A stretch of 64,000 bases of DNA from Candidatus Omnitrophota bacterium (GTDB lineage Bacteria; Omnitrophota; Gorgyraeia; Gygaellales; Profunditerraquicolaceae): NCBI GenBank assembly GCA_041651115.1, contig JBAZJY010000004.1, forward strand, positions 78,114 through 142,113. Direction: 5' to 3'. Position 1 is the first letter of the stretch; every line of letters begins with the position of its first letter. Positions 24,628 through 60,812 of the stretch are shown here, piece by piece. Position numbers and translations under genes: made by a program. The notes beneath the pieces are model-generated. The model searched no databases. It saw only the letters and a program-made list of their open reading frames with translations, and was not told where the DNA came from.

Positions 24628-24629
24628 AT

Positions 24630-35010: not shown

Positions 35011-35085
35011 TTTGGGTAAGTGTGATTAAAAAACGGGCAAAAGCTGCCTAATCTTTAACAAATACCCAATTCAATAGGTTGAATT

Positions 35086-35113: not shown

Positions 35114-35119
35114 AATGCT

Positions 35120-36796: not shown

Positions 36797-36812
36797 TGTT
36801 ATATTAACAGCC

Positions 36813-40295: not shown

Positions 40296-40340
40296 CCTTA
40301 ATGTATCCTTTCCGTATAGCCTTTGCATCAATCGCATAAC

Positions 40341-42845: not shown

Positions 42846-42852
42846 TTTAAGT

Positions 42853-45620: not shown

Positions 45621-46306
45621 AGGCAGTCATATTAGCAGGCGGCAGGGGAGAAAGGCTTCGGCCCTTGACAGATGCCGTGCCTAAGCCGATGATCAGAATA
45701 AAAGGCAGGCCTTTCCTTGAGCACCAATTGGAGTTGCTGAAAAAAAACGGGATAACTTCGTTCCTGCTCTGCGTAGGTTATCTTAAAGAAGCGGTCATTG
45801 ATCATTTCGGCGACGGCAGCCGGTTCGGGCTGAAGATTGAATATTCCACAGAAGGATCTTTTTTAGGCACAGCCGGAGCAATAAAACAGGCGGAGGGATT
45901 GCTCCCCGGAGAGTTTATTTTACTTTACGGAGATTCCTACCTGCCGATCGATTATGCAGCTTTAGTGGATGCCTGGTTTAAGCGTGATTGCAGCGGTTTA
46001 GTAGTGTGTTATGACAACTCATTACATATCGCTCAAAATAATATTTATTTGTCGCCTGACAATAGAATAATTTCATACAACAAACGCAGCCCCGACAGCC
46101 GGGCAAATTATGTAGAGGCAGGAGTGAGCATATTAAAAAAAGAAATTTTGGGGTTGATACCTCCGGCTGGGCAGGTTTCGCTGGAAGAGGAAATTTTTCC
46201 GCTCCTGGCCAGGGACGGGCTTTTAAAAGGCTATCCTACAAGCCAGCGTTATTATGATATCGGCGCTCCCGAGCGCCTGAAAAGCATTGAAGAGGTGTTA
46301 TTATGA
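45617..46306 (+). CDS. Sugar-1-phosphate nucleotidyltransferase (HddC-like, D-glycero-D-manno-heptose-1-P guanylyltransferase-like)
   Basis: The N-terminus reads MKAVILAGGRGERLRPLTDAVPKPM. The 229-aa length matches HddC. It is translationally coupled to the downstream kinase. Confidence 0.75.
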   Translation: MKAVILAGGRGERLRPLTDAVPKPMIRIKGRPFLEHQLELLKKNGITSFLLCVGYLKEAVIDHFGDGSRFGLKIEYSTEGSFLGTAGAIKQAEGLLPGEFILLYGDSYLPIDYAALVDAWFKRDCSGLVVCYDNSLHIAQNNIYLSPDNRIISYNKRSPDSRANYVEAGVSILKKEILGLIPPAGQVSLEEEIFPLLARDGLLKGYPTSQRYYDIGAPERLKSIEEVLL

Positions 46307-47283
46307 TCATTTCCAGGACGCCCTTAAGGATCAGCTTTGTTGGCGGCGGAACAGACCTGGCGGTATTTTATAAAAAAGAAACCGGGGAAGTGATCTCTAC
46401 TGCCGTGAATAAATATATGTATGTCAGCGTCAACAAGCGCTTTGACGATTCTATCCGCCTCAGCTATACCAAAACCGAGATCGTGGATAACGTAGAGGAC
46501 TTGCAGCATGAATTGGTAAAGGAGGCAATGAAGCTTACCGGCGTAACCAAGGGCGTAGAGATCACCACCGTTGCCGATATTCCCGCTAAAGGCACGGGCC
46601 TGGGTTCTTCCAGCAGCCTGACCGTCGGGCTCTTGAACGCGCTCTACGCTTATAAAGGCAAGAGAGTGGCTACGCGCCGGCTTGCCGAAGAGGCATGCAA
46701 GATTGAGATTGATATAGTGGGAGAGCCGATCGGCAAGCAAGACCAGTATATTGCCGCTTACGGCGGGATCAAGCATTTTTATTTCAAGCAGAATAACAGC
46801 GTGGTAGTCGAGCCGTTATTAGTTTCCGGCCGCAGGATAAAAAAACTGCAGGAAAATCTGATGCTGTTTTATACGCAGATCAACCGCAGCGCGCATTCGG
46901 TGCTTAAAGAGCAAAAGGCAAACAGCAGCAACAAACTTGAGGAGCTGCGCAGCTTGAAAGGGCTCGTGCCCGGGTTAAAGAACTGTTTTGAGAAAGAAAG
47001 CAGCAGGTTAGATGAATTCGGCGAGATCCTGCATCGGGGATGGCAGGTCAAGAAAACCCTTGCCTCCAATATTACTAATGACGTGATTGACCGTTATTAT
47101 CAGAAGGCAATGAATGCCGGAGCTATCGGAGGAAAAATCCTTGGTGCCGGCGGCGGCGGCTTTCTGCTTTTATATTGCCACAAGGAATATCAGCGCAAAG
47201 TAAAAGAGGCGCTTAAGCCTTTAAGGCAGGTAGCGTTTGAATTTGAGCCGGAAGGCTCGAGGATCATCTATGCGGACTACTAA
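46303..47283 (+). CDS. GHMP-family sugar kinase (HddA-like heptose-7-phosphate kinase-like)
   Basis: PAKGTGLGSSSS is the GHMP ATP-binding motif. The protein is 326 aa. Confidence 0.75.
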   Translation: MIISRTPLRISFVGGGTDLAVFYKKETGEVISTAVNKYMYVSVNKRFDDSIRLSYTKTEIVDNVEDLQHELVKEAMKLTGVTKGVEITTVADIPAKGTGLGSSSSLTVGLLNALYAYKGKRVATRRLAEEACKIEIDIVGEPIGKQDQYIAAYGGIKHFYFKQNNSVVVEPLLVSGRRIKKLQENLMLFYTQINRSAHSVLKEQKANSSNKLEELRSLKGLVPGLKNCFEKESSRLDEFGEILHRGWQVKKTLASNITNDVIDRYYQKAMNAGAIGGKILGAGGGGFLLLYCHKEYQRKVKEALKPLRQVAFEFEPEGSRIIYADY

Positions 47284-48235
47284 AACACGTTATTTAGTTA
47301 CCGGCGGATGCGGGTTTATCGGCAGCCACGTGGTGGACAGGCTGATAAAGTCCGGCGCGGTTATTGTATATGATAATTTAAGCTCCGGAAAAAAAGAATT
47401 TATCAACGGGCATTTAGGAAAAAAGAATTTCCGTTTCATTAAAGCCGACCTGCTTAACAAAAATGCGCTGATAAAGGCAATGTCCGGAGTGGATGTCGTA
47501 TTCCACATGGCGGCAAACCCGGAGATCAGGATCGGAGAAGTTGAGCCGGAGGTGGATTTTAAACAAGGGATAGTAGCTACCTATAATGTGCTTGAGGCAA
47601 TGCGGCTTTGCCGGGTAAAAAAAATAGCCTTCGCTTCCAGTTCTACGGTGTTCGGAGAGCCGGCAATCAGGCCGACGCCGGAAGACTATGCGCCGTTAAA
47701 GCCGATTTCGGTATACGGGGCAAGTAAGCTGGCATGCGAGGGGCTGGTCAGCGCGTATTCCTACATGTTCGGCATCCAATCATGGATCTTCCGTTTTGCC
47801 AATATCGTCGGAAAAAGAGGCACGCACGGCATCCTTGTGGATTTTTTGCAAAAGCTTGAGAAGAACCGTAAAACTCTAGAGGTGCTGGGAAACGGCAGGC
47901 AGCGTAAATCTTACCTTTTGGTAGAAGACGTAGCGGGCGGAATGTTGTTTGCGCTGCGGCGCGCCGGAGAACAGGTGAATATTTTTAATCTCGGCACGGC
48001 TGATGACATCAGGATCTCGGAGATCGCCGGGATAGTTTTAGAAAAGTCAGGGCTTGCCAAGGCGAAGGTCCGTTATACCGGCGGCAGCCGCGGATGGAAA
48101 GGCGACGTGCCGCTTATGCTGCTGGATATTTCAAAAATAAGGAAGCTGGGATGGCGGATAAATTACGGCTCGCGCTTCGCCGTTATAAAAGCCGTTGATG
48201 CCCTGCTCCAGGAAAAATATGCCCGGCCAGAATGA
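47270..48235 (+). CDS. NAD-dependent epimerase/dehydratase (extended SDR, UDP-sugar 4-epimerase-like)
   Basis: The N-terminus reads YLVTGGCGFIGSHVV. The catalytic motif is YGASKLACE, that is YxxxK. The protein is about 321 aa. Confidence 0.8.
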   Translation: MRTTKTRYLVTGGCGFIGSHVVDRLIKSGAVIVYDNLSSGKKEFINGHLGKKNFRFIKADLLNKNALIKAMSGVDVVFHMAANPEIRIGEVEPEVDFKQGIVATYNVLEAMRLCRVKKIAFASSSTVFGEPAIRPTPEDYAPLKPISVYGASKLACEGLVSAYSYMFGIQSWIFRFANIVGKRGTHGILVDFLQKLEKNRKTLEVLGNGRQRKSYLLVEDVAGGMLFALRRAGEQVNIFNLGTADDIRISEIAGIVLEKSGLAKAKVRYTGGSRGWKGDVPLMLLDISKIRKLGWRINYGSRFAVIKAVDALLQEKYARPE

Positions 48236-49220
48236 CCTTCCTTTTATTTCGGTAGTCATACCCGTTAAGAATGCCGCCAGGTTCCTTCCTAAATGTTTAG
48301 ACAGCCTGAATAATCTTAATTATCCTAAGGATAAATATGAAGTGATTATTTCAGATTCCGATTCTACGGATGGGACAAGGCAGATCGCTGTTTCTATGGG
48401 CGCGAAGGTAGTTGACGCGGGAGGCCCCAGCGTCTGCGCCGGAAGGAACAGCGGGTTTAAAGCGTCTAAGGGAGAGATTGTTGCTTTTTCCGACGCCGAC
48501 TGTGTGATGGATAAAGACTGGTTGGCCAACGCGGTAAAGTACTTTGCCGACAGGGATGTGGCATGCGTGGGAGGGGTAAGCCTTGTGCCGGAAGATGAAA
48601 CGGCATTCGGCAAGGCCTGCGGGTTTATTTTTTCCTACAGTCTATTTACCGGCGGTTCTACGTATGGGATGGATTTTCCTAAGGTGCGGGAGGTCAAGCA
48701 TAATCCCGGGTGCAATGCGATTTACCGGCGCAGCAGCTTGGAAAGGGTAATGCCGGTAGACGAACGGATTACCGACGGTGAAGACGTGGTGATGAATAAG
48801 CGGTTGAGCGATATGGGATATAAATTCTTATTTACGCCGGATACAAAACTTTGGCATTATCGTTCTTCCACCCCTAAAAGATTTTGGAAACAGAAGATAC
48901 ATTACGGCATAGGCAGGGTAATGATCGCCAGGCAGTATCCCGCGCTGCTTAATCCGATGCATATCATTGCCGGATACAGCATTCCCTTGATTGCCGGCAC
49001 CATGCTGCTTGCGGCATATCTGAAGATGGTCATTTTTTTCGCCGTATTTTATGCGGGCGCGGTATTCCTGCTGTTTTTCTTTTTTTCGGCGTGGTTTAAG
49101 GTGCGTTCTTTACGGGTAGCCCTGAACGTGCCGCTGGCGATCATTATTTTACTTTTTGGCTGGTCAATCGGCTTTATGGGAGAGGTATTTTTCCCGCAGC
49201 GCAAAAAACAATCATTATGA
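48219..49220 (+). CDS. GT2-family glycosyltransferase with C-terminal TM helices
   Basis: ISVVIPVKNAARFL...ISDSDSTDGT...FSDADC are GT-A motifs. The C-terminal hydrophobic region reads LLFFFFSAWF. Confidence 0.7.
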   Translation: MPGQNDLPFISVVIPVKNAARFLPKCLDSLNNLNYPKDKYEVIISDSDSTDGTRQIAVSMGAKVVDAGGPSVCAGRNSGFKASKGEIVAFSDADCVMDKDWLANAVKYFADRDVACVGGVSLVPEDETAFGKACGFIFSYSLFTGGSTYGMDFPKVREVKHNPGCNAIYRRSSLERVMPVDERITDGEDVVMNKRLSDMGYKFLFTPDTKLWHYRSSTPKRFWKQKIHYGIGRVMIARQYPALLNPMHIIAGYSIPLIAGTMLLAAYLKMVIFFAVFYAGAVFLLFFFFSAWFKVRSLRVALNVPLAIIILLFGWSIGFMGEVFFPQRKKQSL

Positions 49221-50689
49221 AAATCACTTTTTTAATCCCGCCGGCTTTAGACGGCACTTATGACGTTGACCGCACGTCCGGCTGCAACTACAATGCCTAT
49301 TTCCTGCCGCTTTTGCCCATGCTGCACAGCGCCACGATATTAAAAGACAGGATAGAGGCCGTGGCGATCCTGGATTTTCCCGCTAATAAGAAAAACCGGC
49401 ATGACCTTGAAGCGTTTATTGAGAAAGACGATTCCAGCGTTTACGTTTTTTATACGGTTTTTCTCTGTCAACAAACAGATATGCGGGTGCGGGAAATGAT
49501 CCGTAAAAAAAGGCAGTCCGGCGTATATTTCATTTTTTCCGGGCCGCAGCCCACATTCGCCCCGGAGGTATTCCTGGATAAAAGCGATACGTTCGTGGTA
49601 AGGGGCGAGCCGGAATTCATTACCGCAGACCTGGTTAGCGCGATCAACGCCGGTTCAGGGTTGGGCAAGGTGCAGGGGGTCTCGTATTACGATGGCAGGC
49701 AAATAATCCATAACCATTCCGCGGGCTTTATCGCCGATCTTGACAAGCTGCCGATACCCGATCGCAAGCTGCTTGACCATCGGCCGTATTATAATCCTAA
49801 GCTGCGCACAACCCCGCATACTGCGGCAATGGCTTCCCGCGGCTGCTTTGGCCGCTGCACCTTTTGCGTCCCTACTTCCTTAGACTACGCGCGTGAGTTG
49901 GAGCACAGGAAATCCTGCGGCCGCAAGCCGCCGCCGCGCATGCATTCCGCAAAAAGGGTGATTGAGGAATTCCGTTCTATGGCAGCGCACGGTTTTAAGT
50001 CCGTATCGCTTTTAGACGATGAATTCCTATGGGATGACCGGCGCACGCTTGAGATTTGCGACGGCATCAAGGACCTGAAGCTTGAGTGGTCGTGTTTATG
50101 CCGGCCGGATAAAGTCAATGACGCGGTTGCCAAGGCAATGAAACGGGCAGGCTGCGCTTACGTTGACCTGGGCACCGAATCGTTTGACGACGGGGTATTA
50201 AAGGCGATCAGGAAAGATATGACCGCCGAAGACACCGACAATGCGGTAAAAATTTTAAGGCATAACGGCATTCAGGTTGAGCTCAATGTCCTTTTCGGCG
50301 CGACTCCGGTTGAGACGGAAAAAACGATAAGGAAGACGTTGCGGCACCTGCGCAAGCTTAATGTGGATTACGTGCTTTTCAGCATTGCCAATCCTTTCCC
50401 CGGCACGGAATTCTACGATACGGCAAAAAAAGAAGGCTGGATGTATTACGGGGATTATGTCCCGGCTGACCCGGCAAAAAGCGCAATCATCTCCTACCCG
50501 CATTTATCCAAAAAAAAGCTGGAGTATTATGTCACCTATGCTTATGTCAGCTATTACCTGCACCCGCGCTATCTCTTGCGCCAGCTATTGCACGTCAGGG
50601 GGCCGCGTGATTTTATGCAGAAGCTTTCCACGGCCTTTAAGTTTTTCCGTAAGACGTTTTCTTCGGAAAGAAAGAAGGGAAAAGCATGA
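49217..50689 (+). CDS. Class B (B12-binding) radical SAM enzyme
   Basis: The radical SAM motif is CFGRCTFC. An N-terminal B12-binding-like domain is present. The protein is 490 aa. Confidence 0.7.
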   Translation: MKITFLIPPALDGTYDVDRTSGCNYNAYFLPLLPMLHSATILKDRIEAVAILDFPANKKNRHDLEAFIEKDDSSVYVFYTVFLCQQTDMRVREMIRKKRQSGVYFIFSGPQPTFAPEVFLDKSDTFVVRGEPEFITADLVSAINAGSGLGKVQGVSYYDGRQIIHNHSAGFIADLDKLPIPDRKLLDHRPYYNPKLRTTPHTAAMASRGCFGRCTFCVPTSLDYARELEHRKSCGRKPPPRMHSAKRVIEEFRSMAAHGFKSVSLLDDEFLWDDRRTLEICDGIKDLKLEWSCLCRPDKVNDAVAKAMKRAGCAYVDLGTESFDDGVLKAIRKDMTAEDTDNAVKILRHNGIQVELNVLFGATPVETEKTIRKTLRHLRKLNVDYVLFSIANPFPGTEFYDTAKKEGWMYYGDYVPADPAKSAIISYPHLSKKKLEYYVTYAYVSYYLHPRYLLRQLLHVRGPRDFMQKLSTAFKFFRKTFSSERKKGKA

Positions 50690-51558
50690 AGCGCTTTAAT
50701 TTATTCTGGGCGGCCCTGTTCTTTTTCGCCGGGATCATGGCGGTATTGGTTTTTTACCGGGTTATTGCGCCGCGTTCCGAAGATACAGGCGTTTCGCAGA
50801 TGGGCAGCAACGCCCCTTACTACGCGGAAATTAAAGAGATCATCAAGCCTTTGAGGTATTCGGGGTTTTCCAGCCTGATGATGCCGGAAGTTAAAATAAC
50901 TATTAATTTTATTGCCCGCACATGGAGGCTGCACAATATCCATCATTTTGACGATGAGGGAAAGGTCGTTTTGGTTGAAGGCCGTTACGGCCTTTGCGGT
51001 GACCTGGCAGCTTATCTTTACGATAAGATCAAGCCTTTATTAGGCAATGAGTATGATATTGATTTTGTCCGGGTTGCCGAATCGGGCTATTTCCTTGATC
51101 CGCGCGCCTCGCACATAGCGCTGTTAATCACAAGGCAATCCCTTTTTGGCCAGGCAGTCTATCTTCTTGACCCATCGTTCCGCAGGTACGGCTTAGAAAG
51201 TGATTTTGACGAGTATTTATTTTTTGATAAGATGCGGGAACTTCCATTTGTGGAAAATAAGAACAGGGATGAAGTTTTTAATATCGGGGCAATTACCCCG
51301 ATCCTCATCCGGAAAGAGTACATAGTCGGGCTGATCGTAGATGAGCAGAACGCCAGGTTTGACAAAGATAATTTTATTGTGGCTATCACCGCTACCCGCC
51401 GTTTTAAATATACCGGCCGGGCATTGCTGACCATACGCAGGATAGACGGCAGGACCGAGGTTATGGAAAACACGCATTTGGCAGGTATTATCCTTGGCCG
51501 GGACATATACGCCAAGCTGCGCGAAAGAATAATGCAGCTGTATTCAGAATTGCCATAG
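50686..51558 (+). CDS. Hypothetical membrane-anchored protein, possibly transglutaminase-like papain-fold
   Basis: An N-terminal TM helix is present. GRYGLCGDLAAYLYD resembles the transglutaminase-like G-x-C-x-D-x-A catalytic Cys motif. The resemblance is weak. Confidence 0.4.
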   Translation: MKRFNLFWAALFFFAGIMAVLVFYRVIAPRSEDTGVSQMGSNAPYYAEIKEIIKPLRYSGFSSLMMPEVKITINFIARTWRLHNIHHFDDEGKVVLVEGRYGLCGDLAAYLYDKIKPLLGNEYDIDFVRVAESGYFLDPRASHIALLITRQSLFGQAVYLLDPSFRRYGLESDFDEYLFFDKMRELPFVENKNRDEVFNIGAITPILIRKEYIVGLIVDEQNARFDKDNFIVAITATRRFKYTGRALLTIRRIDGRTEVMENTHLAGIILGRDIYAKLRERIMQLYSELP

Positions 51559-51576
51559 GTAATAAAAGGTGTTAAA

Positions 51577-52962
51577 ATGAATAACTTTAAAATAGCGCTG
51601 GTGCGGCCGGATTATCATTCGCATTTGATCACTCCGCCGCTAAGCCTTGGATACCTTTCTTCTTACTTAAAAAGTAAAGGTTTTGATTGCGAGATCATTG
51701 ACGGGTTAAATCTGGGATTTGGCCCGGAAAAAATCATTAAGCGCTGTAAAGGCGCTTCTTTGGTCGGGGTCAATTGCCTGAGCGCATATTTTCCGGAAAC
51801 TATTGCATTAAGCCGCAAGTTAAAAGATAAGGGCTTTAAAGTTGTAGTCGGCGGGCCGCATGCCTCGGCACTGCCGGAATTGACCCTGGATGAAACCAGG
51901 GCTGATTATGTTGTTTGCGGCGAAGGAGAAATTACCTTATTTGAGTTGGCCGATGCCTTAAGCAATAGAAAGCCGGTTTCCGGGATCCCCGGCATAATGG
52001 CGCAAAGCAGCCGGCAGTTAAAAAAGAGGCCTTTGATCAATGATCTTGATGCTTTGCCGTTTCCCGATTGGCAGCAGATGGATCCCGGTAAATATAAGAA
52101 AGCGCCGCACGGAGGCCTGATAAAAAGTTTTCCCGTTGCGCCGATAACCTCCACGCGCGGCTGCCCATTTGAATGTTCGTTTTGCGCCAGCCCCAGGCTC
52201 TGGGATAAGGCCATCCGTTTTCGCAGCCCGGAAAACGTAGTTGACGAGATTGAATATCTGGTTAAGGAATTCAAGGTGCGGGAGATCCATTTTGAAGACG
52301 ACAACCTTACTTTAAAGAAGAGCCATATTGAAGGTATATGCAATTTGATCTTGGAAAGGAAAATAAAAGTCAGCTGGGCAACGCCGAACGGGGTGCGCGC
52401 TGATACGCTTGACCTTCAGCTTCTGCGTTTGATGAAAAAAAGCGGCTGTTATTTTATCGCGTTTGGCATTGAATCCGGGAATCAGGCTATCCTCGACGGG
52501 ATCAACAAAAAGACGAAGCTGGAGACCATTGAAAAGGCAGTGGCAATGGCCAGGCGCGCCGGCATTGTCACGCAGGGATTTTTTATTTTTGGCCTGCCCG
52601 GAGAGACCGCGGCAACGGTAAAACAGACCATTGCCTTTGCCAAAAAGCTTCCTTTGGACAAAGCGCAATTTTTATTGCTGGATGTTATGCCCGGGTCAGA
52701 GTTATGGGATAGATTGGCCAAGCAGCGCGCAGCAGGATGGGCGTTAAGGAGCTATCAGGAAACAACCTGGGTGCCCGAAGGTATCAGCCGGCAGGAACTG
52801 AATGCCGCTCCGGCATACGCCTTCCGCAGTTTCTTTTTCCGCCCGAGGCAGATGATGTTCCTGTTAAAATATTTTAAACCGGGCCAGCTTCCTTTTATTT
52901 TGAGGCGGCTGCAGGATTTCGGGGTCTTGCCTTTTTCCAAAAAAAGAGAAGGGGTGTCTTAA
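51577..52962 (+). CDS. Class B (B12-binding) radical SAM enzyme
   Basis: The radical SAM motif is TRGCPFECSFCAS. An N-terminal B12-binding-like domain is present. The protein is 461 aa. Confidence 0.7.
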   Translation: MNNFKIALVRPDYHSHLITPPLSLGYLSSYLKSKGFDCEIIDGLNLGFGPEKIIKRCKGASLVGVNCLSAYFPETIALSRKLKDKGFKVVVGGPHASALPELTLDETRADYVVCGEGEITLFELADALSNRKPVSGIPGIMAQSSRQLKKRPLINDLDALPFPDWQQMDPGKYKKAPHGGLIKSFPVAPITSTRGCPFECSFCASPRLWDKAIRFRSPENVVDEIEYLVKEFKVREIHFEDDNLTLKKSHIEGICNLILERKIKVSWATPNGVRADTLDLQLLRLMKKSGCYFIAFGIESGNQAILDGINKKTKLETIEKAVAMARRAGIVTQGFFIFGLPGETAATVKQTIAFAKKLPLDKAQFLLLDVMPGSELWDRLAKQRAAGWALRSYQETTWVPEGISRQELNAAPAYAFRSFFFRPRQMMFLLKYFKPGQLPFILRRLQDFGVLPFSKKREGVS

Positions 52963-52964
52963 AT

Positions 52965-54410
52965 ATGCCCAGGCACGTCGTTATTTTAGGAGCAGGGGCC
53001 GCAGGCTTAAGCGCGGGTTGGGAGCTTTCCCGGCAAGGCATCCGCGTGGATGTGCTGGAAAAAGAGGCGGTTGTCGGCGGATTATGCCGCAGCACAAAGC
53101 GGGACGGGTTTATCTTTGACCTGGGAGGCCATCGCTTCATCACTAAAGACGAACTCCTGCTTGCCGATGTAACCGAATTGATGGGCGAAGACCTGCTGGT
53201 CAGGCCGCGCAAGAGCGTGATCCGGCTGCAGGGAAAATTTTTCTCCTATCCCTTATCCATAGTTGACGTTTTAAAAAAGATCAATCCTTTGATCTCTCTA
53301 AGGACGGGGATCGATTTTCTTCTCACTAAGGTCGGCGCATATTCGCGGCTTTCCGACGAGTCTTTTGAAAACTGGATCGTCAAGCGCTTTGGCCGGACGC
53401 TCTATGATATCTATTTCGGGCCTTATTCGGAAAAATTATGGGGCATGCCTCCGAAACAGCTTTCTTCCGGATGGGCGGCACAGCGCATTTCCCTGGTAAA
53501 CATTACCGATGTCCTGTTGCGCGCTTTGGGTAAGAAAAAAGATATGCCCAAAACATACGCCAGCCATTTTCTTTACCCCAAAAAAGGCATCGGCCATATA
53601 TCCGAGCGCATGGCAGAGGAGATAGAAAAGAAGGGCGGCAAAGTCCATCTTAATTCCGAAGTAAAGAAGGTCAGCATCAGGGATAACCGCATTCAGGAGA
53701 TCGTTTACCTCCAGGACGGGCAGGAAAAAAGCATTTCCGCGGATTTCTTCGTTTCTACCATACCTTTGCCGGAATTCATTTTAGACGTTGAGCCAAGGCC
53801 CGATAACGGCTGTATCGCCACTGCCGAAGAGATGGGCTTTCGCAGTGTCCTATTCCTGCATATTATGTTGAATACCGAATTCATTACCGATAATACCTGG
53901 ATTTACATACCGGAGGAAAAATACCTGTTTTTTCGCATACAGGACAGGAGGAATTGGAGCCCGACTACCGTGCCGCCGGGGCAAAACGCCCTGACCCTGG
54001 AGATCGCCTGCAATAAAGAAGATGCAGTATGGGCCATGCCGGATAAGGATATTTTTGAGCGCTGCATCACCGGCTTAGAGGAATTGAAGCTGGCGCGCCG
54101 CGATCAGGTAATTGATTTTTTCACGGAAAAGATCGAGCATGCCTATCCGATCTATGCCATGGATTATGAAAAAAAGATCAAGACTACGTATAGTTTTCTT
54201 TCAAAGATAAAAGATTTTATTTCTATCGGCCGCCAGGGATTATACAGGTATAATAATATGGACCATTCGCTGAAAATGGGGATCCTTGCTGCCAAGCACA
54301 TCCTGCACGGTTACCCGAAGCAGAAAGTATTAGAGATCGCCACAGAGAATATTATTTTTGACTGGCAGGACCCCGGGTACCACGACGGCAGGAAGAATAT
54401 TATAGAATAA
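52965..54410 (+). CDS. FAD-dependent oxidoreductase, UDP-galactopyranose-mutase-like / amine-oxidase-like
   Basis: The N-terminal dinucleotide-binding motif is VVILGAGAAGLSAG. YSEKLWGMPPKQLSSGWAAQRI resembles the Glf Y..KQWG..P..LP motif. The protein is 481 aa. Confidence 0.6.
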   Translation: MPRHVVILGAGAAGLSAGWELSRQGIRVDVLEKEAVVGGLCRSTKRDGFIFDLGGHRFITKDELLLADVTELMGEDLLVRPRKSVIRLQGKFFSYPLSIVDVLKKINPLISLRTGIDFLLTKVGAYSRLSDESFENWIVKRFGRTLYDIYFGPYSEKLWGMPPKQLSSGWAAQRISLVNITDVLLRALGKKKDMPKTYASHFLYPKKGIGHISERMAEEIEKKGGKVHLNSEVKKVSIRDNRIQEIVYLQDGQEKSISADFFVSTIPLPEFILDVEPRPDNGCIATAEEMGFRSVLFLHIMLNTEFITDNTWIYIPEEKYLFFRIQDRRNWSPTTVPPGQNALTLEIACNKEDAVWAMPDKDIFERCITGLEELKLARRDQVIDFFTEKIEHAYPIYAMDYEKKIKTTYSFLSKIKDFISIGRQGLYRYNNMDHSLKMGILAAKHILHGYPKQKVLEIATENIIFDWQDPGYHDGRKNIIE

Positions 54411-54674
54411 TACGATGATTATAATTTTGCATCTGCCTTGTCTTGCTTTTCGCAGGGACGCTCGCCCCGCCCAGCGTGCGGGGCTTCGCTCGGAAGTCGG
54501 CTTTCGCTCTCCCCGCCGTTGTTGGAGACAAACGGCGAGGATCCATGCCCGCTCAAGCCTCCTACGCCCTGCTCAAAGCAAAACAAGTCAGCCGCAAAAT
54601 TATTAGCGATATCTTACGGCGAAATGTTGCAGCGCCGAGAATAAAAAAGCGGAAATTAACGAAGGAATGAGAAA

Positions 54675-56132
54675 ATGAGAATGAGCGTGATCAGCCCGAA
54701 TTTAAGCGGGTGCTGTTCGATCCTTGATATCGGCGTTACCTGCCTTGCGACTTACATCAATGAGCGCACGGAGCATAAGGCGAATATCATTGATTATACT
54801 TTCCGGACGAAGGACTGGAAATCCTACCTAAAGAAACGGCTGGAAGAATTTAAGCCCGACGTTATCGGCATCACCACGACTTCGCTTTTTATGCGTTATG
54901 TGCGCCTGACCATTGAGGAAATAAGGAAGGAATATAGTCAAGATGTGCCGATCGTCCTGGGCGGCTACCATACTACTTTGAATCCCGATTCAGTGATCAA
55001 GGAACCCGGGGTTGACGCGATCGTGCTTGGAGAGGGCGAATATATCATCAGCGATTATCTTGACGCGCTTGCTAAAGGCAAGAGCTTGGACGGCATTACC
55101 GGATTGTGGTATAAGAAGGGCGCAGAGTTCGTCAAGAATCCCAAGCGCGGCTGGATCGAAGATATTGACAGCCTGCCTGTTCCCGATTACGACCTTTGGG
55201 AAGATATTGATAAATATTTTTATTTTATCAGCCAGCTCTGGTTTATGGGCACGCGCGGCTGCCCGTTTAAATGCACGAATTGCTCGGAAGAGCCGATGAA
55301 CAAGGCCCTTCCCGGCAAGCGTTTTCGCGTGCGTAACCCCAAGGCCTATGTCCAGGAAATAAAACAGCAATGGCTTAAATATAAAGACCGGGGTTTTCGC
55401 ATGGCGCATCCCTTTGACGCGGTCTTTACCGTTAATACCGAATGGGTAAGGGATTTTTGCGAAGAATATAAAGCTCAAGGCCTGGCAGGTAAGCTTCCAT
55501 TTTCCGTATTTACCCACGGCGCGACTTCGCAGGAAGAAAAAGTAAAGTTGCTTGCCGCAGCCGGGTGCAAAGAAGTGCGCATAGGCATTGAATCAGGCAG
55601 CGAGCGCGTAAGGAATGAAGTTTACGGCAAACACGCCACAGACGCGCAGATCCGGGAGGCATTCAAAAATTTTCATAAATACGGACTAAACGTCATTGCT
55701 TACAACATGTTAGGCGGCCCGACCGAAACCAAAGAAATACTCTGGCAAACCTATAATTTTAACAAAGAGTTACAGCCGGAAAAGCCGATCTTTTTCATTT
55801 TCCGGCCGCTGCCCGGAACCGATATTATCGCGCAAATGAACAGCCTTGGGGAGGAAATTGACAGCGCGGCGATGTCGCATGAGATTGATACCCTGCATTG
55901 GGGCGCGGCATTAAAATCCAAAAGCCGCAGCGAAAACTACGTAGAGTATTTCCAGCTGCGCTGTTTCCTGTATTTTGTTTCAAGAAGGGTATGGCGTTTG
56001 ATAAAAAAACAAAAGCTGCGTTTCTTTATCAATTTTTTCAGGTATATGTATACCGCCCGGAAATATAAGCTTGACATGCGCATTGCCTTTGCTTATTTTC
56101 TTGCTTCCTGCGGCGATAGCCTGTTTATGTAA
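54675..56132 (+). CDS. Class B (B12-binding) radical SAM enzyme
   Basis: The radical SAM motif is TRGCPFKCTNCSE. An N-terminal B12-binding-like domain is present. The protein is 485 aa. Confidence 0.7.
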   Translation: MRMSVISPNLSGCCSILDIGVTCLATYINERTEHKANIIDYTFRTKDWKSYLKKRLEEFKPDVIGITTTSLFMRYVRLTIEEIRKEYSQDVPIVLGGYHTTLNPDSVIKEPGVDAIVLGEGEYIISDYLDALAKGKSLDGITGLWYKKGAEFVKNPKRGWIEDIDSLPVPDYDLWEDIDKYFYFISQLWFMGTRGCPFKCTNCSEEPMNKALPGKRFRVRNPKAYVQEIKQQWLKYKDRGFRMAHPFDAVFTVNTEWVRDFCEEYKAQGLAGKLPFSVFTHGATSQEEKVKLLAAAGCKEVRIGIESGSERVRNEVYGKHATDAQIREAFKNFHKYGLNVIAYNMLGGPTETKEILWQTYNFNKELQPEKPIFFIFRPLPGTDIIAQMNSLGEEIDSAAMSHEIDTLHWGAALKSKSRSENYVEYFQLRCFLYFVSRRVWRLIKKQKLRFFINFFRYMYTARKYKLDMRIAFAYFLASCGDSLFM

Positions 56133-56641
56133 TGGTAAAAGGTTTATTCCTCGGAGTATTCTGTTTTTTATTGTTCCTCCTGCATACTTCCATATTCCAC
56201 AGGTTTAATATCCGGCGGAAATTCTTCGCGGTCGCGCTTTCATTCTTCGGCGGGTTATTTATTTATACGCTGCTTTTTCTGGCCGTGCCCAGGGAATATT
56301 TTCAAAATATTGCGCCGGCGCTGGCCCTGGCATTTTTAAACGGAGCGTTCCTGCATTTCTTTTTTTATTATTTCTATATCCACTTCATACAGATCATGGA
56401 CCGGTCGGTATCTACGCGGATGATGACCGAGATCGAAAAATCGCCTGCCTGCCGGCTTAAAGCGGAAGAGCTGGAGATGGCCTACAGTATGGATGAAAAA
56501 ATTTCTACGGAAATGGAAGACATGGTTATCCTCGGGCGGCTGATTAAGGACGGGGATGAATACAGGCTGGCACCTAAGGGCAGGCTTCATTCGGCGGTTT
56601 TTAAAAACGTGCGGGATTATTTAAGGCTAAGGAGAAGTTAG
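56132..56641 (+). CDS. Hypothetical 4-TM membrane protein with a cytoplasmic C-terminal domain (paralog A)
   Basis: It shares the pattern DRSvSt..m.EIEkSP...L......AYS... with the downstream paralog. No family I can name was found. Confidence 0.45.
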   Translation: MVKGLFLGVFCFLLFLLHTSIFHRFNIRRKFFAVALSFFGGLFIYTLLFLAVPREYFQNIAPALALAFLNGAFLHFFFYYFYIHFIQIMDRSVSTRMMTEIEKSPACRLKAEELEMAYSMDEKISTEMEDMVILGRLIKDGDEYRLAPKGRLHSAVFKNVRDYLRLRRS

Positions 56642-56647
56642 GCCGTT

Positions 56648-57214
56648 ATGGAGATAATAAAGAGCATAATCATTGCCGTGATTTGTTCTTTTACCGCGCT
56701 GTTGCTGCATCTCTTCCTGAATATTTTCAGGAAGGGCAGGCAGGCGAGCGAGCCGGTGATCCTTGAACTGGGCAGGCAGGCAAAAATATCGCTGGCAGCT
56801 TGGATTTTCACGTTTATATTATTTATCGTTTTATTCTTTTTTCCTCCGGCGTTCATCAACGCCTTGGCAGGCGTAATCAACTCTTTTGAAAATCCGGCAG
56901 CATATATTTACGGCGTTTTCCTGTATTTAATCTTGTGTTTTTCATATTTAATCGTTTATTATTTTATTGACCGTTCAATATCCGCGACGCTGCTTGAAAT
57001 GATCGAGAATTCTCCGGAGGGTAAGCTAAGCATTCAGCAGATAAAAGAGGCGTATAGCGTATCCGGCAAATACCGCATGGAATTAAAAGGCATGGCCGAA
57101 GGCGGTTTTATCGTTGAAGAATCGGGATATTTCCGGAATTCCCTGAAAGGCCGGCTCTACGCAAGGCTGGCGTTGATCACGAAAGCGGTTTTAAAATTAG
57201 GGCCGGGAGGATAA
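56648..57214 (+). CDS. Hypothetical 4-TM membrane protein (paralog B of 56132..56641)
   Basis: This is a tandem paralog, with DRSISATLLEMIENSPEGKL..IKEAYS matching DRSVSTRMMTEIEKSPACRL..LEMAYS. Confidence 0.45.
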   Translation: MEIIKSIIIAVICSFTALLLHLFLNIFRKGRQASEPVILELGRQAKISLAAWIFTFILFIVLFFFPPAFINALAGVINSFENPAAYIYGVFLYLILCFSYLIVYYFIDRSISATLLEMIENSPEGKLSIQQIKEAYSVSGKYRMELKGMAEGGFIVEESGYFRNSLKGRLYARLALITKAVLKLGPGG

Positions 57215-57220
57215 GCAGGC

Positions 57221-58357
57221 ATGTTTACCGCAAAGACCAAAAAAGCTTTGGTAAAAGGGGTGCTTACCAAGAGGAGCCCGATCTACGTGCAGTTTGCGGT
57301 TACCAAGCTTTGTAACCTTAAATGCCGGATGTGCGGCTCTTCGCTGTCTAGAAAAGAAGAAGCGGAGCTTTCATTGCCGCAGATTGAAAAACTCGCCGGT
57401 AATCTGGATAAATTAAAAGCCGGAGTGATCCTGTTGACCGGCGGAGAAGTATTCCTGCGGCCGGATATCGCGGACATCGTGCGGATCTTTTCCCGGCGCG
57501 GCTTTACCGTGCGGCTGCAGACAAACGGCATCCTTGCCGACGAGGAAAAGATCAGGCAGGTATATGCAGCCGGGATAAAAGAAGTAACGATCTCCCTGAA
57601 CACGCTTTCGCCGGAGAAGCAGGACGCGATCACCGGGCAAGACGGTTCATGGCAAAAGATCATCGCTGCGATCGCCAGGTTCTCGCAGATACTTCCCGTC
57701 AAAGGCACGCTCCTGGGTATCAATACGGTTGTCACGCGCGACAATTTAGATGAGCTTCCGCAGCTGATAAAGTTTGTCAGCGGGATCGGTTTTTATTCTT
57801 CGCTGATACCGATCCACCTCAGTAATCCCGGCGACGGCGATTTCATCATCAGGAAATATTCTCCGGAATCCGCTTTTCAACCGTCGGATTTTGAGAGGAT
57901 CGATGAAGTATACGGCAGGATCATCCGGATGAAGAAACAAGGTTATAACATTTATAACTCGTACAAATTCCTGCGTAACAGCCCGGCATTCTTAAAGGGT
58001 AAGAGGGTCAACTGGCGCTGTGACAGCCCGCATTTATATTTTGCCATCAGCCCATCAGGGAATTTCCTGCCTTGCGTGGATATCAAGACTTCTATTTCAA
58101 TGTTGGATGACAGTTTCCCCGCGCTGTATCGCTCGCAGGATTTTCAGAAGAAAATACGGCAGATGGTGGAAAAATGCCGCGGTTGTTTTTACGCCTGTTG
58201 GCCGGAAATGACTTATCTCTGCCGCGATCCGTTTGTCTTTTTGGAAAGGGCAAGGTTTGCCATGGCGGCAGCCGTAAAAATACGCAAACCCGTAACTTAT
58301 CCACAGTGCCTGAGCCTCATTGAGGGCATAAGAAACGCGCCTTCCCCGCTTACCTAA
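57221..58357 (+). CDS. Radical SAM enzyme with a C-terminal SPASM/twitch-like Cys-rich domain
   Basis: The radical SAM motif is CNLKCRMCGS. A GGE motif reads LLTGGEVFLRPD. The C-terminal Cys cluster reads C...C...CRGCFYAC...C. The protein is 378 aa. Confidence 0.7.
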   Translation: MFTAKTKKALVKGVLTKRSPIYVQFAVTKLCNLKCRMCGSSLSRKEEAELSLPQIEKLAGNLDKLKAGVILLTGGEVFLRPDIADIVRIFSRRGFTVRLQTNGILADEEKIRQVYAAGIKEVTISLNTLSPEKQDAITGQDGSWQKIIAAIARFSQILPVKGTLLGINTVVTRDNLDELPQLIKFVSGIGFYSSLIPIHLSNPGDGDFIIRKYSPESAFQPSDFERIDEVYGRIIRMKKQGYNIYNSYKFLRNSPAFLKGKRVNWRCDSPHLYFAISPSGNFLPCVDIKTSISMLDDSFPALYRSQDFQKKIRQMVEKCRGCFYACWPEMTYLCRDPFVFLERARFAMAAAVKIRKPVTYPQCLSLIEGIRNAPSPLT

Positions 58358-58572: not shown

Positions 58573-58678
58573 AAGATACAGCAAATATGCGAGATGCATA
58601 TAAGGGGAATCGGCAGCGTAAAAACAGCCTAACTTCTAAAAAAGAGTTAGGCTTTTCTTATTTATATAGAGGCGAAAG

Positions 58679-59560
58679 ATGAGTTATTTCAAGGTTTTAG
58701 GATTTGAGAAGGAACCTTTTTCCACAAGCCCGGATCCGGACTTTTTTTATCTGTCAAAGGAGCACGAGATCGCTTTAACAAACATTCTTATTGATCTCAG
58801 GCTTAAGCGCGGCCTTTGCATTATCCTTGGCGATGTCGGCACCGGAAAGACGACCCTTTCGCGCAAGCTGATCCAGGAATTAAAATCCCGCGATGATTTT
58901 ATTTTTCACATCGTGCTTGACCCGTCATTTGACAGCGAAGAATTATTTTTAACTTCGCTGGCGCGTAATTTTGAGATCGGGCTTGGCGCGAATATTTCCG
59001 ACCTTTCAATATTAGACCTGCGCGAAGCCCTGGAGCGCTTCCTTTTTCAAAAAGGCGTTACGGAAAATAAGACCGTTACGCTGATCGTTGATGAGGCGCA
59101 AAAATTGAGCGAAGGCTCGCTTGAGCTTTTGCGCGTGCTGCTTAATTATGAAACAAACGAATTTAAATTGCTGCAGCTTATTTTATTGGGCCAGCTGGAA
59201 CTTTATTCCAAGATCGTGAATATCCCGAACTTTTTTGACCGCATCAGTTTCAAATATACGCTTAATCCGTTAGACTATAATGAAACGAAGGAAATGATCG
59301 CCTTTCGCATCAGGCAGGCCGGCTATCAGGCGAATATGGATATATTTTTGGAAGACGCGCTGCGCGCGATCTATGAGCACAGCCGCGGCTATCCGCGCCA
59401 GATCACCATGCTCTGCCATAAATCCTTAAAGAACCTTGTGCTCAAAAATAAATACGTCGTTGATTCCGAGATCGTCAACGAACTGATCGAAGAAGAGGTC
59501 AAGTCGGGATGGCACAGAAAAAGCAACCCGTTGCAGTCCAACATCGTGAGGACAAACTAG
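58679..59560 (+). CDS. ExeA/GspA-like AAA ATPase (MshM-like)
   Basis: Walker A reads GDVGTGKTT. Walker B reads VTLIVDEAQ. The ExeA-family architecture is present. The protein is 293 aa. Confidence 0.7.
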   Translation: MSYFKVLGFEKEPFSTSPDPDFFYLSKEHEIALTNILIDLRLKRGLCIILGDVGTGKTTLSRKLIQELKSRDDFIFHIVLDPSFDSEELFLTSLARNFEIGLGANISDLSILDLREALERFLFQKGVTENKTVTLIVDEAQKLSEGSLELLRVLLNYETNEFKLLQLILLGQLELYSKIVNIPNFFDRISFKYTLNPLDYNETKEMIAFRIRQAGYQANMDIFLEDALRAIYEHSRGYPRQITMLCHKSLKNLVLKNKYVVDSEIVNELIEEEVKSGWHRKSNPLQSNIVRTN

Positions 59561-59561
59561 A

Positions 59562-60809
59562 GTGCGCAGGCCAGGCATAAACACAAATTATTTTTTGATC
59601 GCATTGGCTACGGCAGTAGGGTTGGTCATCGGCTTGATCCTCAGCCAGACCGGCAAGGCTAAAGATATCGTCTCTGCTGAAATCATCAGCCCGATAAAAT
59701 CCGCTAACGCTTCTCCGAGCGCACCGGCACAGAATAATCCGCCGGCAAAACCGTCGCCTGAAAAAATTTCCAAAGCGCCCGACGCGGAAAAGAGCATCTT
59801 GCGCCTGAAAGACTACATCAAAAGTACCGAAGAAAAAAGCGCTTTTCTTAAAGAGAAAGTCGAGCTTCTCGACGACTTACTTAATTCCAAGGGCAAAGAG
59901 CTGGCAAAATTAAATACCGATAACGCCATCCTTAAAGAAAATCTTAACCAGACGATCGAGCTGCAAAATAAATTAAAGGCAGAGCTTGAACAAAATATTA
60001 ACAGCCTCCGGGAGCAACTCAGCCAAAAAGACGCGGACATCTCCAGTCTTAACGCGGCCAAGGCGGGATTGGAAGGCCAGCTTGCCGAATTGAATAATAA
60101 ATTGTCCGTTCTTTCAACGGATTATGCTGTTTTGCAGGCTAAGTCCGGCAGTTTAGAGCAGGATAAATCATCGCTGGAATCAAGGCTTGGCCGGATCAGG
60201 GAAGACCTGGACCGGCAGGAGGCAATCAACGACACCCTGAATAAAAACGTATCGGAATTAACGGCAAGCCTTGCTGCCAAAGAAAAAGAGCGTTTGGATA
60301 TCAGCGTTGAGCTTGAGCAGCTGATGTCTGCTAAGGCTAATGCGGAAACAGAGCTTGCCCGGATTAAATCGGCAAAGGCAGAAGCGGATAACAATATAAA
60401 CCAGCTCAACAGCCGTATAAGCGAGATCAACGCGTTGTATGAGGAGGCGAAAAAATCGCTCTTTCAAATGTCAAATATGCTTGCTGCCAAAGAACAGTTG
60501 ATCAATGAAAAAGAAAGCGAGGCCTCCGCCCTAAAAGACAGCCTCGTTAAATCTGACGGAGGCAAGGGCCTATTGCTTTCTGCTTTGGATGAAAAGGAAA
60601 AGGTCATCTGCGACCTGAACGCGGCGCTGGCCAGTATGGAAGGCCGCATTGCTGCCATGCAGAAAGAGCTCGCCGCGCAAGAAGAGCGCCAGGCAAACAC
60701 CAGCCGGCAGCTGGCCGAGGCAGTATCGTTGAATAAAAATTTAAAAATGAAACTTAAAAATATATATATTGAGTTGGAAATGATCCGGGCCGAAAGGCAG
60801 GGGCGATAA
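59562..60809 (+). CDS. Membrane-anchored long coiled-coil protein (ExeB/GspB-like partner?)
   Basis: The start is GTG. The N-terminal TM reads YFLIALATAVGLVIGLIL. A PA-rich linker follows. About 280 aa of heptad-rich coiled coil then follow, rich in L, E, K, N and Q. Confidence 0.5.
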   Translation: MRRPGINTNYFLIALATAVGLVIGLILSQTGKAKDIVSAEIISPIKSANASPSAPAQNNPPAKPSPEKISKAPDAEKSILRLKDYIKSTEEKSAFLKEKVELLDDLLNSKGKELAKLNTDNAILKENLNQTIELQNKLKAELEQNINSLREQLSQKDADISSLNAAKAGLEGQLAELNNKLSVLSTDYAVLQAKSGSLEQDKSSLESRLGRIREDLDRQEAINDTLNKNVSELTASLAAKEKERLDISVELEQLMSAKANAETELARIKSAKAEADNNINQLNSRISEINALYEEAKKSLFQMSNMLAAKEQLINEKESEASALKDSLVKSDGGKGLLLSALDEKEKVICDLNAALASMEGRIAAMQKELAAQEERQANTSRQLAEAVSLNKNLKMKLKNIYIELEMIRAERQGR

Positions 60810-60812
60810 AAT

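Follow-up and report, generated by a model that had tools for sequence, protein, structure and literature searches.

A radical SAM and flavoenzyme cassette conserved across phyla within a glycosylation locus of a Candidatus Omnitrophota bacterium

Background

To our knowledge, the tailoring of sugars by radical S-adenosylmethionine (SAM) enzymes is known almost solely from the hopanoid side chain and from pathways to antibiotics of the aminoglycoside and nucleoside classes. In the hopanoid system the family 2 glycosyltransferase (GT2) HpnI is accompanied by HpnJ, a B12-type radical SAM enzyme that contracts the ring of glucosamine to a cyclitol ether. BlsE, the cytosylglucuronate decarboxylase, removes the carboxyl group of a glucuronic-acid nucleoside by radical chemistry, sugar enzymes with SPASM/twitch domains include the BtrN-type dehydrogenases and the NeoN-type epimerases, and AprD4 is the radical SAM diol-dehydratase of C3'-deoxygenation in apramycin. 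This diol-dehydratase acts on a sugar and works without cobalamin (PMC12931638). Here we analyse a 64,000-nt stretch of DNA (the window, to whose + strand all coordinates refer) from a metagenome-assembled genome of a Candidatus Omnitrophota bacterium, in which three radical SAM genes, a gene for a flavin adenine dinucleotide (FAD) enzyme resembling UDP-galactopyranose mutase (UGM) and a tandem pair of membrane protein genes form a discrete cassette of ~6.8 kb (51577-58357) inside a locus with STT3, GT2 and PMT_2 genes.

Three-component extracytoplasmic glycosylation combines a GT2 (GtrB/CsbB), a flippase (GtrA/GtcA) and a GT-C enzyme (YfhO/ArnT), and ArnE/ArnF is a heterodimeric small flippase made of tandem paralogs. 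The operon described here may be comparable to the three-component systems: a DPM1/AglJ-type GT2 (g42793) lies beside a PMT_2 GT-C (g44001), and the tandem small paralogs g56132 and g56648 recall ArnE/ArnF. In its probable chemistry the cassette resembles GenK-type C-methylation of sugars. On balance we think that 51577-58357 tailors carbohydrates for surface glycosylation, as an accessory cassette whose enzymes work independently of oxygen.

Results

A gene cassette conserved across phyla

A preliminary description of the window had presented 49217-58357 as one dense radical SAM sub-cluster. Its four radical SAM genes within 9 kb, together with the UGM-like flavoenzyme and the tandem membrane paralogs, do all lie close together on the + strand, every open reading frame (ORF) named for the region being present at its coordinates with spacing or overlap of at most 18 bp, bar a 264-bp gap at 54411-54674. 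As a homogeneous unit the region did not hold up, as g49217 goes with the GT2 gene g48195 in another module and g50686 is unrelated. Domains were called at Pfam gathering scores (Radical_SAM PF04055, 29.5 bits; B12-binding PF02310, 32.1; SPASM PF13186, 21.5; DUF3463, 31.3) and NCBIfam equivalog cut-offs, and structural relatives were sought with phmmer against the PDB; hidden Markov model (HMM) scores and PDB phmmer matches served as the proxy for relation to characterised class-B enzymes. The cassette consists of the following genes.

51577-52962, + strand: class-B radical SAM enzyme, orthogroup 1 (g51577; B12-binding 59.4 bits, Radical_SAM 87 bits)
52965-54410, + strand: UGM-like FAD enzyme of the PRK07208 family (g52965; Amino_oxidase 107 bits)
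54675-56132, + strand: class-B radical SAM enzyme, orthogroup 2 (g54675; B12-binding 59.2 bits, Radical_SAM 70 bits)
56132-56641, + strand: membrane protein A, predicted three transmembrane (TM) helices and a cytoplasmic winged helix (g56132; from hydropathy and a weak HTH_45 match)
56648-57214, + strand: membrane protein B, same predicted architecture (g56648; AlphaFold model with a predicted local distance difference test score, pLDDT, of 85)
57221-58357, + strand: SPASM/twitch-like radical SAM enzyme, the cassette anchor (g57221; Radical_SAM 87 bits)

Relatives of g57221 were found in 290 genome stretches from a one-genome-per-species collection; the ORFs of the fetched loci were compared with the window proteins, and partner genes were also looked for within 3 kb on the same strand. 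Among the 27 non-redundant loci whose g57221 relative is at least 45% identical, 23 have a FAD enzyme of the g52965 type, 23 a gene whose best match is g51577 and 20 a gene of the g54675 type; gene order is usually kept with the partners within 3 kb, and the misses are due to contig ends or ORF calling (one such locus, L003, does carry the FAD gene). The corresponding numbers for the 55 loci with a relative 35-40% identical are 0, 4 and 3. About 11 of the 27 loci have a clear g51577 ortholog (51-68% identity), and the remaining best-matching B12-type radical SAM proteins, at 25-37% identity, probably belong to another family. Orthologs of g54675 (40-82% identity) are found in 20 of the 27.

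The core of SPASM-like radical SAM enzyme, UGM-like FAD enzyme and one or two B12-type radical SAM enzymes recurs in Omnitrophota, Planctomycetota, Desulfobacterota and Nitrospinota, and in DPANN archaea the radical SAM enzymes of the cassette are present with a divergent FAD enzyme and PMT_2 genes around them. The clustering of the cassette genes exceeds chance: of 27 non-redundant loci, which represent several phyla, 20-23 show the core set in synteny. We consider it very improbable that the genes are neighbours without a common pathway and that their density merely reflects an anaerobe rich in radical SAM enzymes: g50686 and a repeat element are unrelated material that entered the operon, and g49217 sits in a different module from the rest, which would suit such a coincidence, yet different phyla keep 51577-52965-54675-(pair)-57221 in this order, as genes that overlap or almost touch and are 45-80% identical.

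Neighbours of the cassette are nearly always glycan genes, namely GT2, GT4, GT9, PMT_2, AftD-like GT-C, NTP-transferase, short-chain dehydrogenase/reductase (SDR), DegT and Wzy genes. No orthologs of g49217, g50686 or g36777 (a further class-B gene of the window) were present in the fetched loci with g57221 relatives.

The more distant relatives of g57221 (35-40% identity, L037-L089) come from Gemmatimonadota, Verrucomicrobiota, Gammaproteobacteria, Pelagibacteraceae and the candidate phyla radiation and lie in polysaccharide clusters. A UGM-like partner is always absent and a B12-type radical SAM partner nearly always; a DPM1/AglJ-type GT2 adjoins 30 of the 55 and an SDR 25 of the 55. In Neptuniibacter sp. 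SY11_33 (L089 10001-11206), for example, the neighbours are GT2, GT4, methyltransferase, SDR and split transketolase genes. These relatives form a second uncharacterised, glycan-associated radical SAM subfamily.

The surrounding glycosylation locus

The cassette is the last part of an unbroken run of + strand genes from ~40.3 to 58.4 kb, in which overlaps are 1-53 bp and spacers no longer than 27 bp apart from the gap at 54411-54674, and which stops 321 bp ahead of the next gene. The strongest terminator-like site in 40-59 kb lies just 3' of g57221 and likely marks the end of the operon.

38459-40295, + strand: histidine kinase (38459) and response regulator (39906), ahead of the STT3 gene
40323-42845, + strand: STT3 oligosaccharyltransferase, 840 aa, with a canonical WWDYG at residue 529
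42793-44001, + strand: AglJ/DPM1-like GT2 (g42793), resembling AglJ and dolichyl-phosphate-hexose synthases (157 bits against a cut-off of 325)
44001-45620, + strand: PMT_2 GT-C glycosyltransferase (g44001; Pfam PMT_2 40.9 against 26.1)
45617-46306, + strand: sugar-1-phosphate nucleotidyltransferase, in the context of the upstream glycosylation module (module A, 40323-48235)
46303-47283, + strand: HddA-like GHMP kinase, module A context
47237-48235, + strand: GalE/4,6-dehydratase-like SDR, module A context
48195-49220, + strand: MftF-like GT2 with C-terminal TM segments (g48195; Glycos_transf_2 103 bits; best NCBIfam model MftF, 140 against a cut-off of 280)
49217-50689, + strand: AprD4/HpnJ-like radical SAM protein with a degenerate B12-like N-terminal domain (g49217; Radical_SAM 64.8 bits)
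58626-58653, + strand: terminator-like hairpin, 10-bp stem followed by a T-run
58679-63412, 3' of the glycosylation operon: PEP-CTERM-type AAA ATPase (183 bits against a cut-off of 324), two unannotated proteins and a secretin

Given the STT3, GT2, PMT_2 and sugar-nucleotide genes around the cassette, the setting appears to be one of surface or protein glycosylation and not a peptide or pigment cluster. There are no chlorophyll genes within the window, and an Rfam scan of the whole window returned no matches, and hence no cobalamin or SAM riboswitch. Three public locus tags, WC532_08560, WC532_08580 and WC532_08585, match window proteins at 100% and are all annotated as hypothetical.

This setting also bears on whether the cassette might yield a diffusible secondary metabolite made from carbohydrate, of an aminoglycoside- or nucleoside-like kind, in place of a surface glycan. 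The closest characterised relatives AprD4 and BlsE, and the class-B methylases of the GenK type, do stem from antibiotic pathways; the cassette is nevertheless embedded in a locus with STT3, PMT_2 and a putative GT2 for polyprenyl-phosphate sugars, elsewhere it lies beside GT-C, Wzy and O-antigen-type glycosyltransferase genes, and it occurs in hundreds of species whose genomes are small. Genes for 2-deoxy-scyllo-inosose synthase, for an exporter or for resistance were not seen in the operon. We regard a diffusible product as quite unlikely and a tailored surface sugar as the better account of the neighbourhood.

Orthologs of g49217 that are 56-81% identical were recovered in a metagenome scan, and a GT2 of the g48195 type lies directly 5' of the ortholog wherever upstream sequence exists (L093, L094, L096-L100). 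The GT2 is thus the obligate upstream partner of g49217, and both belong to module A, apart from the cassette. In L098 and L099 the order is response regulator, STT3, GT2, GT2, PMT_2, GT2 and g49217, followed by the AAA ATPase, two more genes and the secretin; these loci are syntenic with the window on both flanks but lack the trio at 45617-47237 and everything from 50686 to 57221. The cassette is also missing downstream of g49217 in the closest relative, L093 (81% identical to g49217). Either the cassette entered the locus between g49217 and the AAA ATPase gene, or the L098 lineage has lost it; in both cases it behaves as a unit. These loci without the cassette, taken with the co-occurrence of its genes across phyla, identify 51577-52965-54675-(pair)-57221 as the conserved unit.

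As in HpnI/HpnJ, a system that rearranges a lipid-linked sugar by radical chemistry, the g48195-g49217 pair has a GT2 gene directly followed by a radical SAM gene. HpnJ (TIGR03471) is the top NCBIfam model for g49217, at 194.1 bits about a third of its cut-off of 577.6, and the AprD4 family (NF033070) scores 110.8 against 500; unlike in hopanoid loci, no squalene-hopene cyclase, HpnH, HpnG or HpnK gene is nearby. The closest solved structure is AprD4 (6fd2, 98 bits across the radical SAM half). In AprD4, too, the N-terminal domain is Rossmann-like and a poor match to B12-binding, but g49217 is paired with a membrane GT2 in a surface-glycosylation locus and not found in an aminoglycoside cluster, and no AprD3-like reductase partner was identified. 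The genes g48195 and g49217 are a separate GT2/radical SAM pair of the core locus and probably make a second radical-modified sugar.

Two further observations concern the core locus. The arrangement response regulator-STT3-GT2-PMT_2 is kept in the metagenomic loci L098 and L099 and suggests that Omnitrophota regulate the glycosylation of proteins or of the cell surface. In L098 (9940-15468) the block from AAA ATPase to secretin is syntenic with the glycosylation locus, hinting at a tie between glycosylation and a secretion or pilus-type export apparatus.

Radical SAM enzymes

The Radical_SAM domain scores 59-87 bits in g49217, g51577, g54675, g57221 and g36777, and each carries a single CX3CX2C motif (at residues 210, 196, 196, 31 and 216, respectively), which in the B12-type proteins reads CFGRCTFC, CPFECSFC, CPFKCTNC or CPGRCTFC. 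A B12-binding domain had been proposed for g49217, g51577 and g54675; it exceeds the Pfam cut-off in the latter two and falls short of it in g49217 (23.7 against 32.1). The B12-type proteins had also been viewed as paralogs whose kinship pointed to iterative chemistry. In a pairwise comparison they are only 24-26% identical to one another, each with its own orthologs in other phyla, and they are therefore ancient, separate families rather than recent duplicates or close paralogs. Recent paralogy thus gives no ground for iterative reactions, while the related suggestion of successive modifications of one scaffold fits the co-occurrence of two B12-type orthogroups with a flavoenzyme and a SPASM-like enzyme.

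Both cassette B12-type enzymes match MgmA, TsrM, AprD4, CysS and OxsB weakly. The best PDB match of g51577 is MgmA (9ccb, 75 bits); HpnJ is also its top NCBIfam model (177.5 against 577.6), and it has the best BchE (TIGR02026) score of the locus, 155 against 481. For g54675 the HpnJ score is 114.5 against 577.6.

The C-terminus of g57221 had been described as SPASM-like. It does not reach the Pfam SPASM cut-off (17.9 against 21.5), nor that of DUF3463 (27.5 against 31.3), and what upholds the description is its cysteine pattern, CX12GX4C ... CX2CX3CX7C, in an alignment of 27 family members. C267, C285, C319 and C322 are invariant, C326 is kept in 24 of 27 and C334 in 22 of 27, and the spacing C267-X12-G280-X4-C285 agrees with CX9-15GX4C plus downstream cysteines, there being six conserved cysteines as against the canonical seven. 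The domain is thus predicted to be a SPASM/twitch-like domain for one or two auxiliary clusters. The best PDB match is BlsE (7vob, 48 bits), with the likeness limited to the radical SAM core (residues 22-190); unlike BlsE, g57221 has a C-terminal CX2CX3CX7C pattern of its own and weakly resembles DUF3463/HpnH, where the alignment to HpnH (TIGR03470) is full-length though it scores 55.8 against 225 bits. A relationship of g57221 to the GDGT/Tes/Grs enzymes was rejected, the sole match being one of 29 bits to GDGT-MAS (7tol).

None of the radical SAM proteins reaches an NCBIfam equivalog cut-off (HpnJ, BchE, AprD4, HpnR, PhpK, the ladderane family, HpnH and others), the scores being 2-10 fold too low. 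With every gene searched against NCBIfam and Pfam, the bacteriochlorophyll, hopanoid, ladderane, pyrroloquinoline quinone (PQQ) and heme d1 pathways were rejected, as the cut-offs for HpnJ, HpnR, HpnH, BchE, AprD4, PhpK, BzaD, the ladderane B12-type radical SAM enzyme, MoaA, PqqE, NirJ and AhbD were not reached; a well-characterised pathway such as that of bacteriochlorophyll, which the preliminary description had named as a potential objection, does not explain the locus. We take these enzymes to be unclassified subfamilies whose closest characterised relatives are mostly carbohydrate-active: AprD4, HpnJ, BlsE and eukaryote-type UGM all act on sugars.

A flavoenzyme resembling eukaryote-type UGM

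The proposed likeness of g52965 to UGM was confirmed. Residues 5-450 align with the eukaryote-type UGMs of Aspergillus fumigatus (3ute/4u8l) and Trypanosoma cruzi (4dsg) over the full length (118 bits, E 3.5e-33), while desaturases and amine oxidases match at the N-terminal dinucleotide-binding motif only. The GGH flavin (His) loop and the equivalents of W315, Y317, R327, Y419, R447, Y453 and N457 are kept, and the catalytic residues of UGM are retained in all bacterial cassette orthologs, even those ~30% identical. The family model NF005548, named 'hypothetical protein', is passed at 394 bits against 389; the curated UGM models PF03275 (GLF; 24.5 against 26.3) and TIGR00031 (58 against 303.75), which are built mostly on prokaryotic-type UGM, are not.

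Unlike the eukaryote-type enzymes, g52965 has Trp for Y334 and altered UDP contacts (Q107 to Ser, N163 to Ser), and R182, the second diphosphate-binding Arg, is replaced by Gly and variable in the orthologs. With R182 lost, the substrate need not be a UDP-sugar, and g52965 would be a mutase-type flavoenzyme for which the activating group may differ from UDP.

The flavoenzyme is also of importance in weighing whether the cassette instead tailors a membrane lipid or isoprenoid (a hopanoid-like side chain, a ladderane-like lipid or a polyprenol carrier), with the FAD enzyme as a desaturase or reductase and the radical SAM enzymes as lipid methylases or cyclases. The best NCBIfam matches do include HpnJ (177-194 bits), the ladderane-associated TIGR04072 (147 bits) and HpnR, the HpnH/DUF3463 match of g57221 is weak though full-length, the cassette is found in Brocadiales, Nitrospinota and Desulfobacterota, and a FA_desaturase gene adjoins one distant membrane-pair locus. 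All of these lipid-family scores are however 2-10 fold under their cut-offs, the substrate moiety of HpnJ is itself a sugar, and the match of the FAD enzyme to UGM is full-length whereas that to desaturases is limited to the dinucleotide-binding motif. Genes for squalene/hopene cyclase, fatty-acid or isoprenoid synthesis are absent beside any examined copy, and the DPANN archaeal cassette sits among PMT_2 genes. We therefore judge a lipid substrate unlikely and continue to favour a carbohydrate one.

Tandem membrane proteins

The genes g56132 and g56648 had been described as tandem paralogs with four TM helices each. They are paralogs (28% identity, E 3.5e-12), each with its own orthologs in other genomes, but the architecture is one of three TM helices followed by a C-terminal winged helix. 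An AlphaFold model of g56648 built from 36 sequences (pLDDT 85) has helices at 2-27, 37-64 and 83-108 and an H-b-H-H-b-b-H domain at 111-182, for which the top Foldseek matches are all winged-helix domains (MarR, MntR/DtxR, IclR and the dimerisation domains of O-methyltransferases), none of them significant (E at least 0.08). The weak Pfam HTH_45 matches of the pair agree with a winged helix, which is predicted to be cytoplasmic because the TM1-TM2 loop is positively charged.

A filter-free profile search found 1706 representative clusters of this family at E <=1e-3, far more than a word-index search, and the best 150 members listed are mostly of 160-190 residues; there is no Pfam model for the family. 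Some members adjoin GT-C genes without any radical SAM gene. Remote tandem pairs adjoin B12-type and other radical SAM genes on a Nitrospina contig (L031), and in L102 the order is DegT, GT-C-like proteins, a B12-type radical SAM gene, two radical SAM genes, GT9, split transketolase, the pair and GT2. A distant member abuts a PMT_2 gene (L105), one abuts a 743-residue protein without a Pfam match (L104) and a tandem pair lies just 3' of a protein whose C-terminus matches the YfhO type weakly (L106), these three contexts being partial neighbourhoods on contigs of 2-5 kb. Observed more widely, this is a large unannotated membrane-protein family, often in tandem beside GT-C (PMT_2/YfhO-like) or radical SAM genes.

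A role as substrate had been suggested for the pair, and SPASM-type radical SAM genes are often found beside the genes of their peptide substrates. The pair is directly 5' of g57221 in all Omnitrophota copies, which would suit maturation of these two small proteins, or of some other peptide, as a ribosomally synthesised and post-translationally modified peptide. It is however missing from most cassette copies, being present in 5-6 of the 27 loci, its high-confidence model is one of three TM helices and a winged helix, its neighbours are those of glycan and not peptide clusters, and the family of >1700 clusters also occurs beside GT-C genes without radical SAM enzymes. No leader- or core-like small ORF, peptidase or ABC exporter was found, and the two non-coding gaps, the only ones present, hold the repeat element and the terminator with no conserved precursor ORFs. 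We give peptide maturation next to no credence.

The membrane family appears tied to glycan loci, often to radical SAM genes, and not to be a peptide substrate. A scaffold or transporter, which had been proposed alongside the substrate role, remains viable, and the pair may act as a tether for the radical SAM enzymes, as a flippase or as a membrane-bound regulator. Searches of the operon against Pfam and NCBIfam annotated no GtrA- or Wzx-type flippase; the pair itself differs from the GtrA and SMR families in fold and has no sequence kinship with them, so that a flipping role would be putative.

Passenger gene, gap element and upstream region

Several features of the window lie outside the cassette proper.

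36777-38354, + strand: fifth class-B radical SAM enzyme (g36777; B12-binding 53.2 bits, Radical_SAM 59 bits, CX3CX2C at residue 216)
50686-51558, + strand: N-terminally TM-anchored, probably periplasmic Cys-His-Asp protein without a Pfam or NCBIfam match (g50686)
54411-54674, no strand assigned: non-coding gap with an inverted-repeat element (internal inverted repeat ~29 nt, 86% identity)

C104, H143 and D162 of g50686 are invariant in 48 homologs, and its AlphaFold model (pLDDT 92) has a TM anchor followed by an alpha/beta domain. LapG is a periplasmic bacterial transglutaminase-like cysteine protease that cleaves the giant adhesin LapA. The top Foldseek matches of g50686 are LapG and arylamine N-acetyltransferases, at E 0.03-0.1 and TM-scores of 0.2-0.3 that make the match a weak one, and a transglutaminase-like nature is plausible from the model. 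Its membership of the cassette was rejected, as its 54 homologs are found singly in unrelated contexts and the gene is absent from the cassette loci. In two of three examined homolog contexts (L091 1-8876 and L092 1-8963) divergent genes for giant proteins, truncated at the locus ends after 8192 and 5920 residues, lie within ~2.5 kb. It is conceivable that these homologs have a LapG-like role on giant proteins of Omnitrophota, though with three contexts the proximity could be due to chance.

The gap at 54411-54674 is absent from related cassettes, the flanking genes abutting in L001 and L003. A 58-nt stretch of the element is 93% identical, in reverse orientation, to intergenic 26352-26409, and it looks like a miniature repeat or an insertion resembling a miniature inverted-repeat transposable element.

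The gene g36777 had been placed at the head of the same operon as a fifth class-B enzyme. Its B12-binding and radical SAM domains are confirmed; shared operon membership was not borne out, as the histidine kinase and response regulator sit between it and the glycosylation genes and no ortholog turned up in the fetched g57221 loci, a comparison that did not include a search aimed at g36777. Its HpnJ score is 78.1 against 577.6.

Further upstream, at 8-36 kb, lies a nitrogen-assimilation region. It contains a full glutamate synthase (GOGAT) at 20077-26075, with GltB of 1516 aa and GltD of 481 aa, and at 33445-36712 a further GltD-like protein (33445) and, after it, a 542-aa protein with the flavin mononucleotide (FMN) 'Glu_synthase' domain alone (35084). 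The latter pair is immediately 5' of g36777, and electron donation to radical SAM chemistry is one idea for it. HupF/HypC is a hydrogenase-maturation chaperone fold. At 26459-27760, between the GOGAT genes and the remainder of this region, a 433-aa protein has the unusual architecture of an N-terminal HupF/HypC domain fused to a radical SAM domain.

Discussion

The modularity of 51577-58357, its synteny across phyla, the glycan context, the sugar-active relatives of its enzymes and the retained UGM residues are the reasons for which we lean towards carbohydrate tailoring for surface glycosylation. With the same slight preference we see it as a horizontally shuffled cassette of cytoplasmic enzymes that remodels an activated sugar later displayed on the cell surface.

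In the mechanism we propose, an upstream kinase, nucleotidyltransferase and SDR would yield a nucleoside diphosphate (NDP) sugar, which the DPM1/AglJ-type GT2 may shift onto polyprenyl phosphate. The UGM-like g52965 would then contract or rearrange the pyranose ring, the two cobalamin-type radical SAM enzymes g51577 and g54675 would place methyl or alkyl groups on unactivated carbons, and g57221 would carry out a hydrogen abstraction leading, for example, to epimerisation, dehydrogenation or decarboxylation. The heterodimer of three-TM/winged-helix proteins would tether the soluble radical SAM enzymes to a lipid-linked substrate or flip the product, which would be used by the GT-C enzymes PMT_2 and STT3. 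We infer the order of reactions, the C-methylation, the ring contraction, the hydrogen abstraction by g57221, the role of the pair and the carrier, be it NDP or polyprenyl phosphate.

A number of points weigh against this interpretation. No enzyme of the locus reaches an equivalog cut-off and hence every reaction is assigned by inference; the mutase activity of g52965 is putative, and its R182 substitution departs from UGM. The DPANN archaeal copies carry a different FAD enzyme in which the UGM residues are lost, and a Brocadiales copy (L009) lies on a short contig without glycosyltransferase neighbours. Cobalamin binding has no diagnostic motif and is not readable from sequence, AprD4 being an example of this fold that does without cobalamin. 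The Foldseek matches of g56648 are not significant, and winged-helix domains usually bind DNA, so that the membrane pair could be regulators.

A more specific proposal, which we regard as doubtful but worth stating, is that the cassette is an anaerobic path to a new surface sugar, ring-contracted (furanose or carbocyclic), C-alkylated by the two cobalamin radical SAM enzymes, assembled on a polyprenyl-phosphate carrier or beside it and handed to GT-C/STT3 enzymes. The heterodimer would then be a membrane adaptor or flippase of a new class, linking soluble radical SAM enzymes to lipid-linked glycans. If this were true, radical SAM chemistry would be a widespread part of envelope glycosylation in uncultured anaerobic phyla.

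What is new here is radical SAM carbohydrate tailoring, as we read it, in the form of a portable cassette in the envelope-glycosylation loci of uncultured anaerobes; full-text literature searches turned up no account of either the cassette or the family of its membrane proteins. Four enzyme families travel as a fixed set through such loci in Omnitrophota, Planctomycetota, Desulfobacterota, Nitrospinota and DPANN archaea, accompanied in many lineages by the membrane family, and no component has a characterised ortholog. Should the product be a C-alkylated or ring-contracted surface sugar, known prokaryotic glycan chemistry would be extended, a function would be provided for PRK07208-type flavoenzymes, two B12-type radical SAM orthogroups, a SPASM-like radical SAM enzyme and the three-TM/winged-helix family, and the cassette would help to explain the diversification of surfaces in episymbiotic or ultra-small anaerobes.

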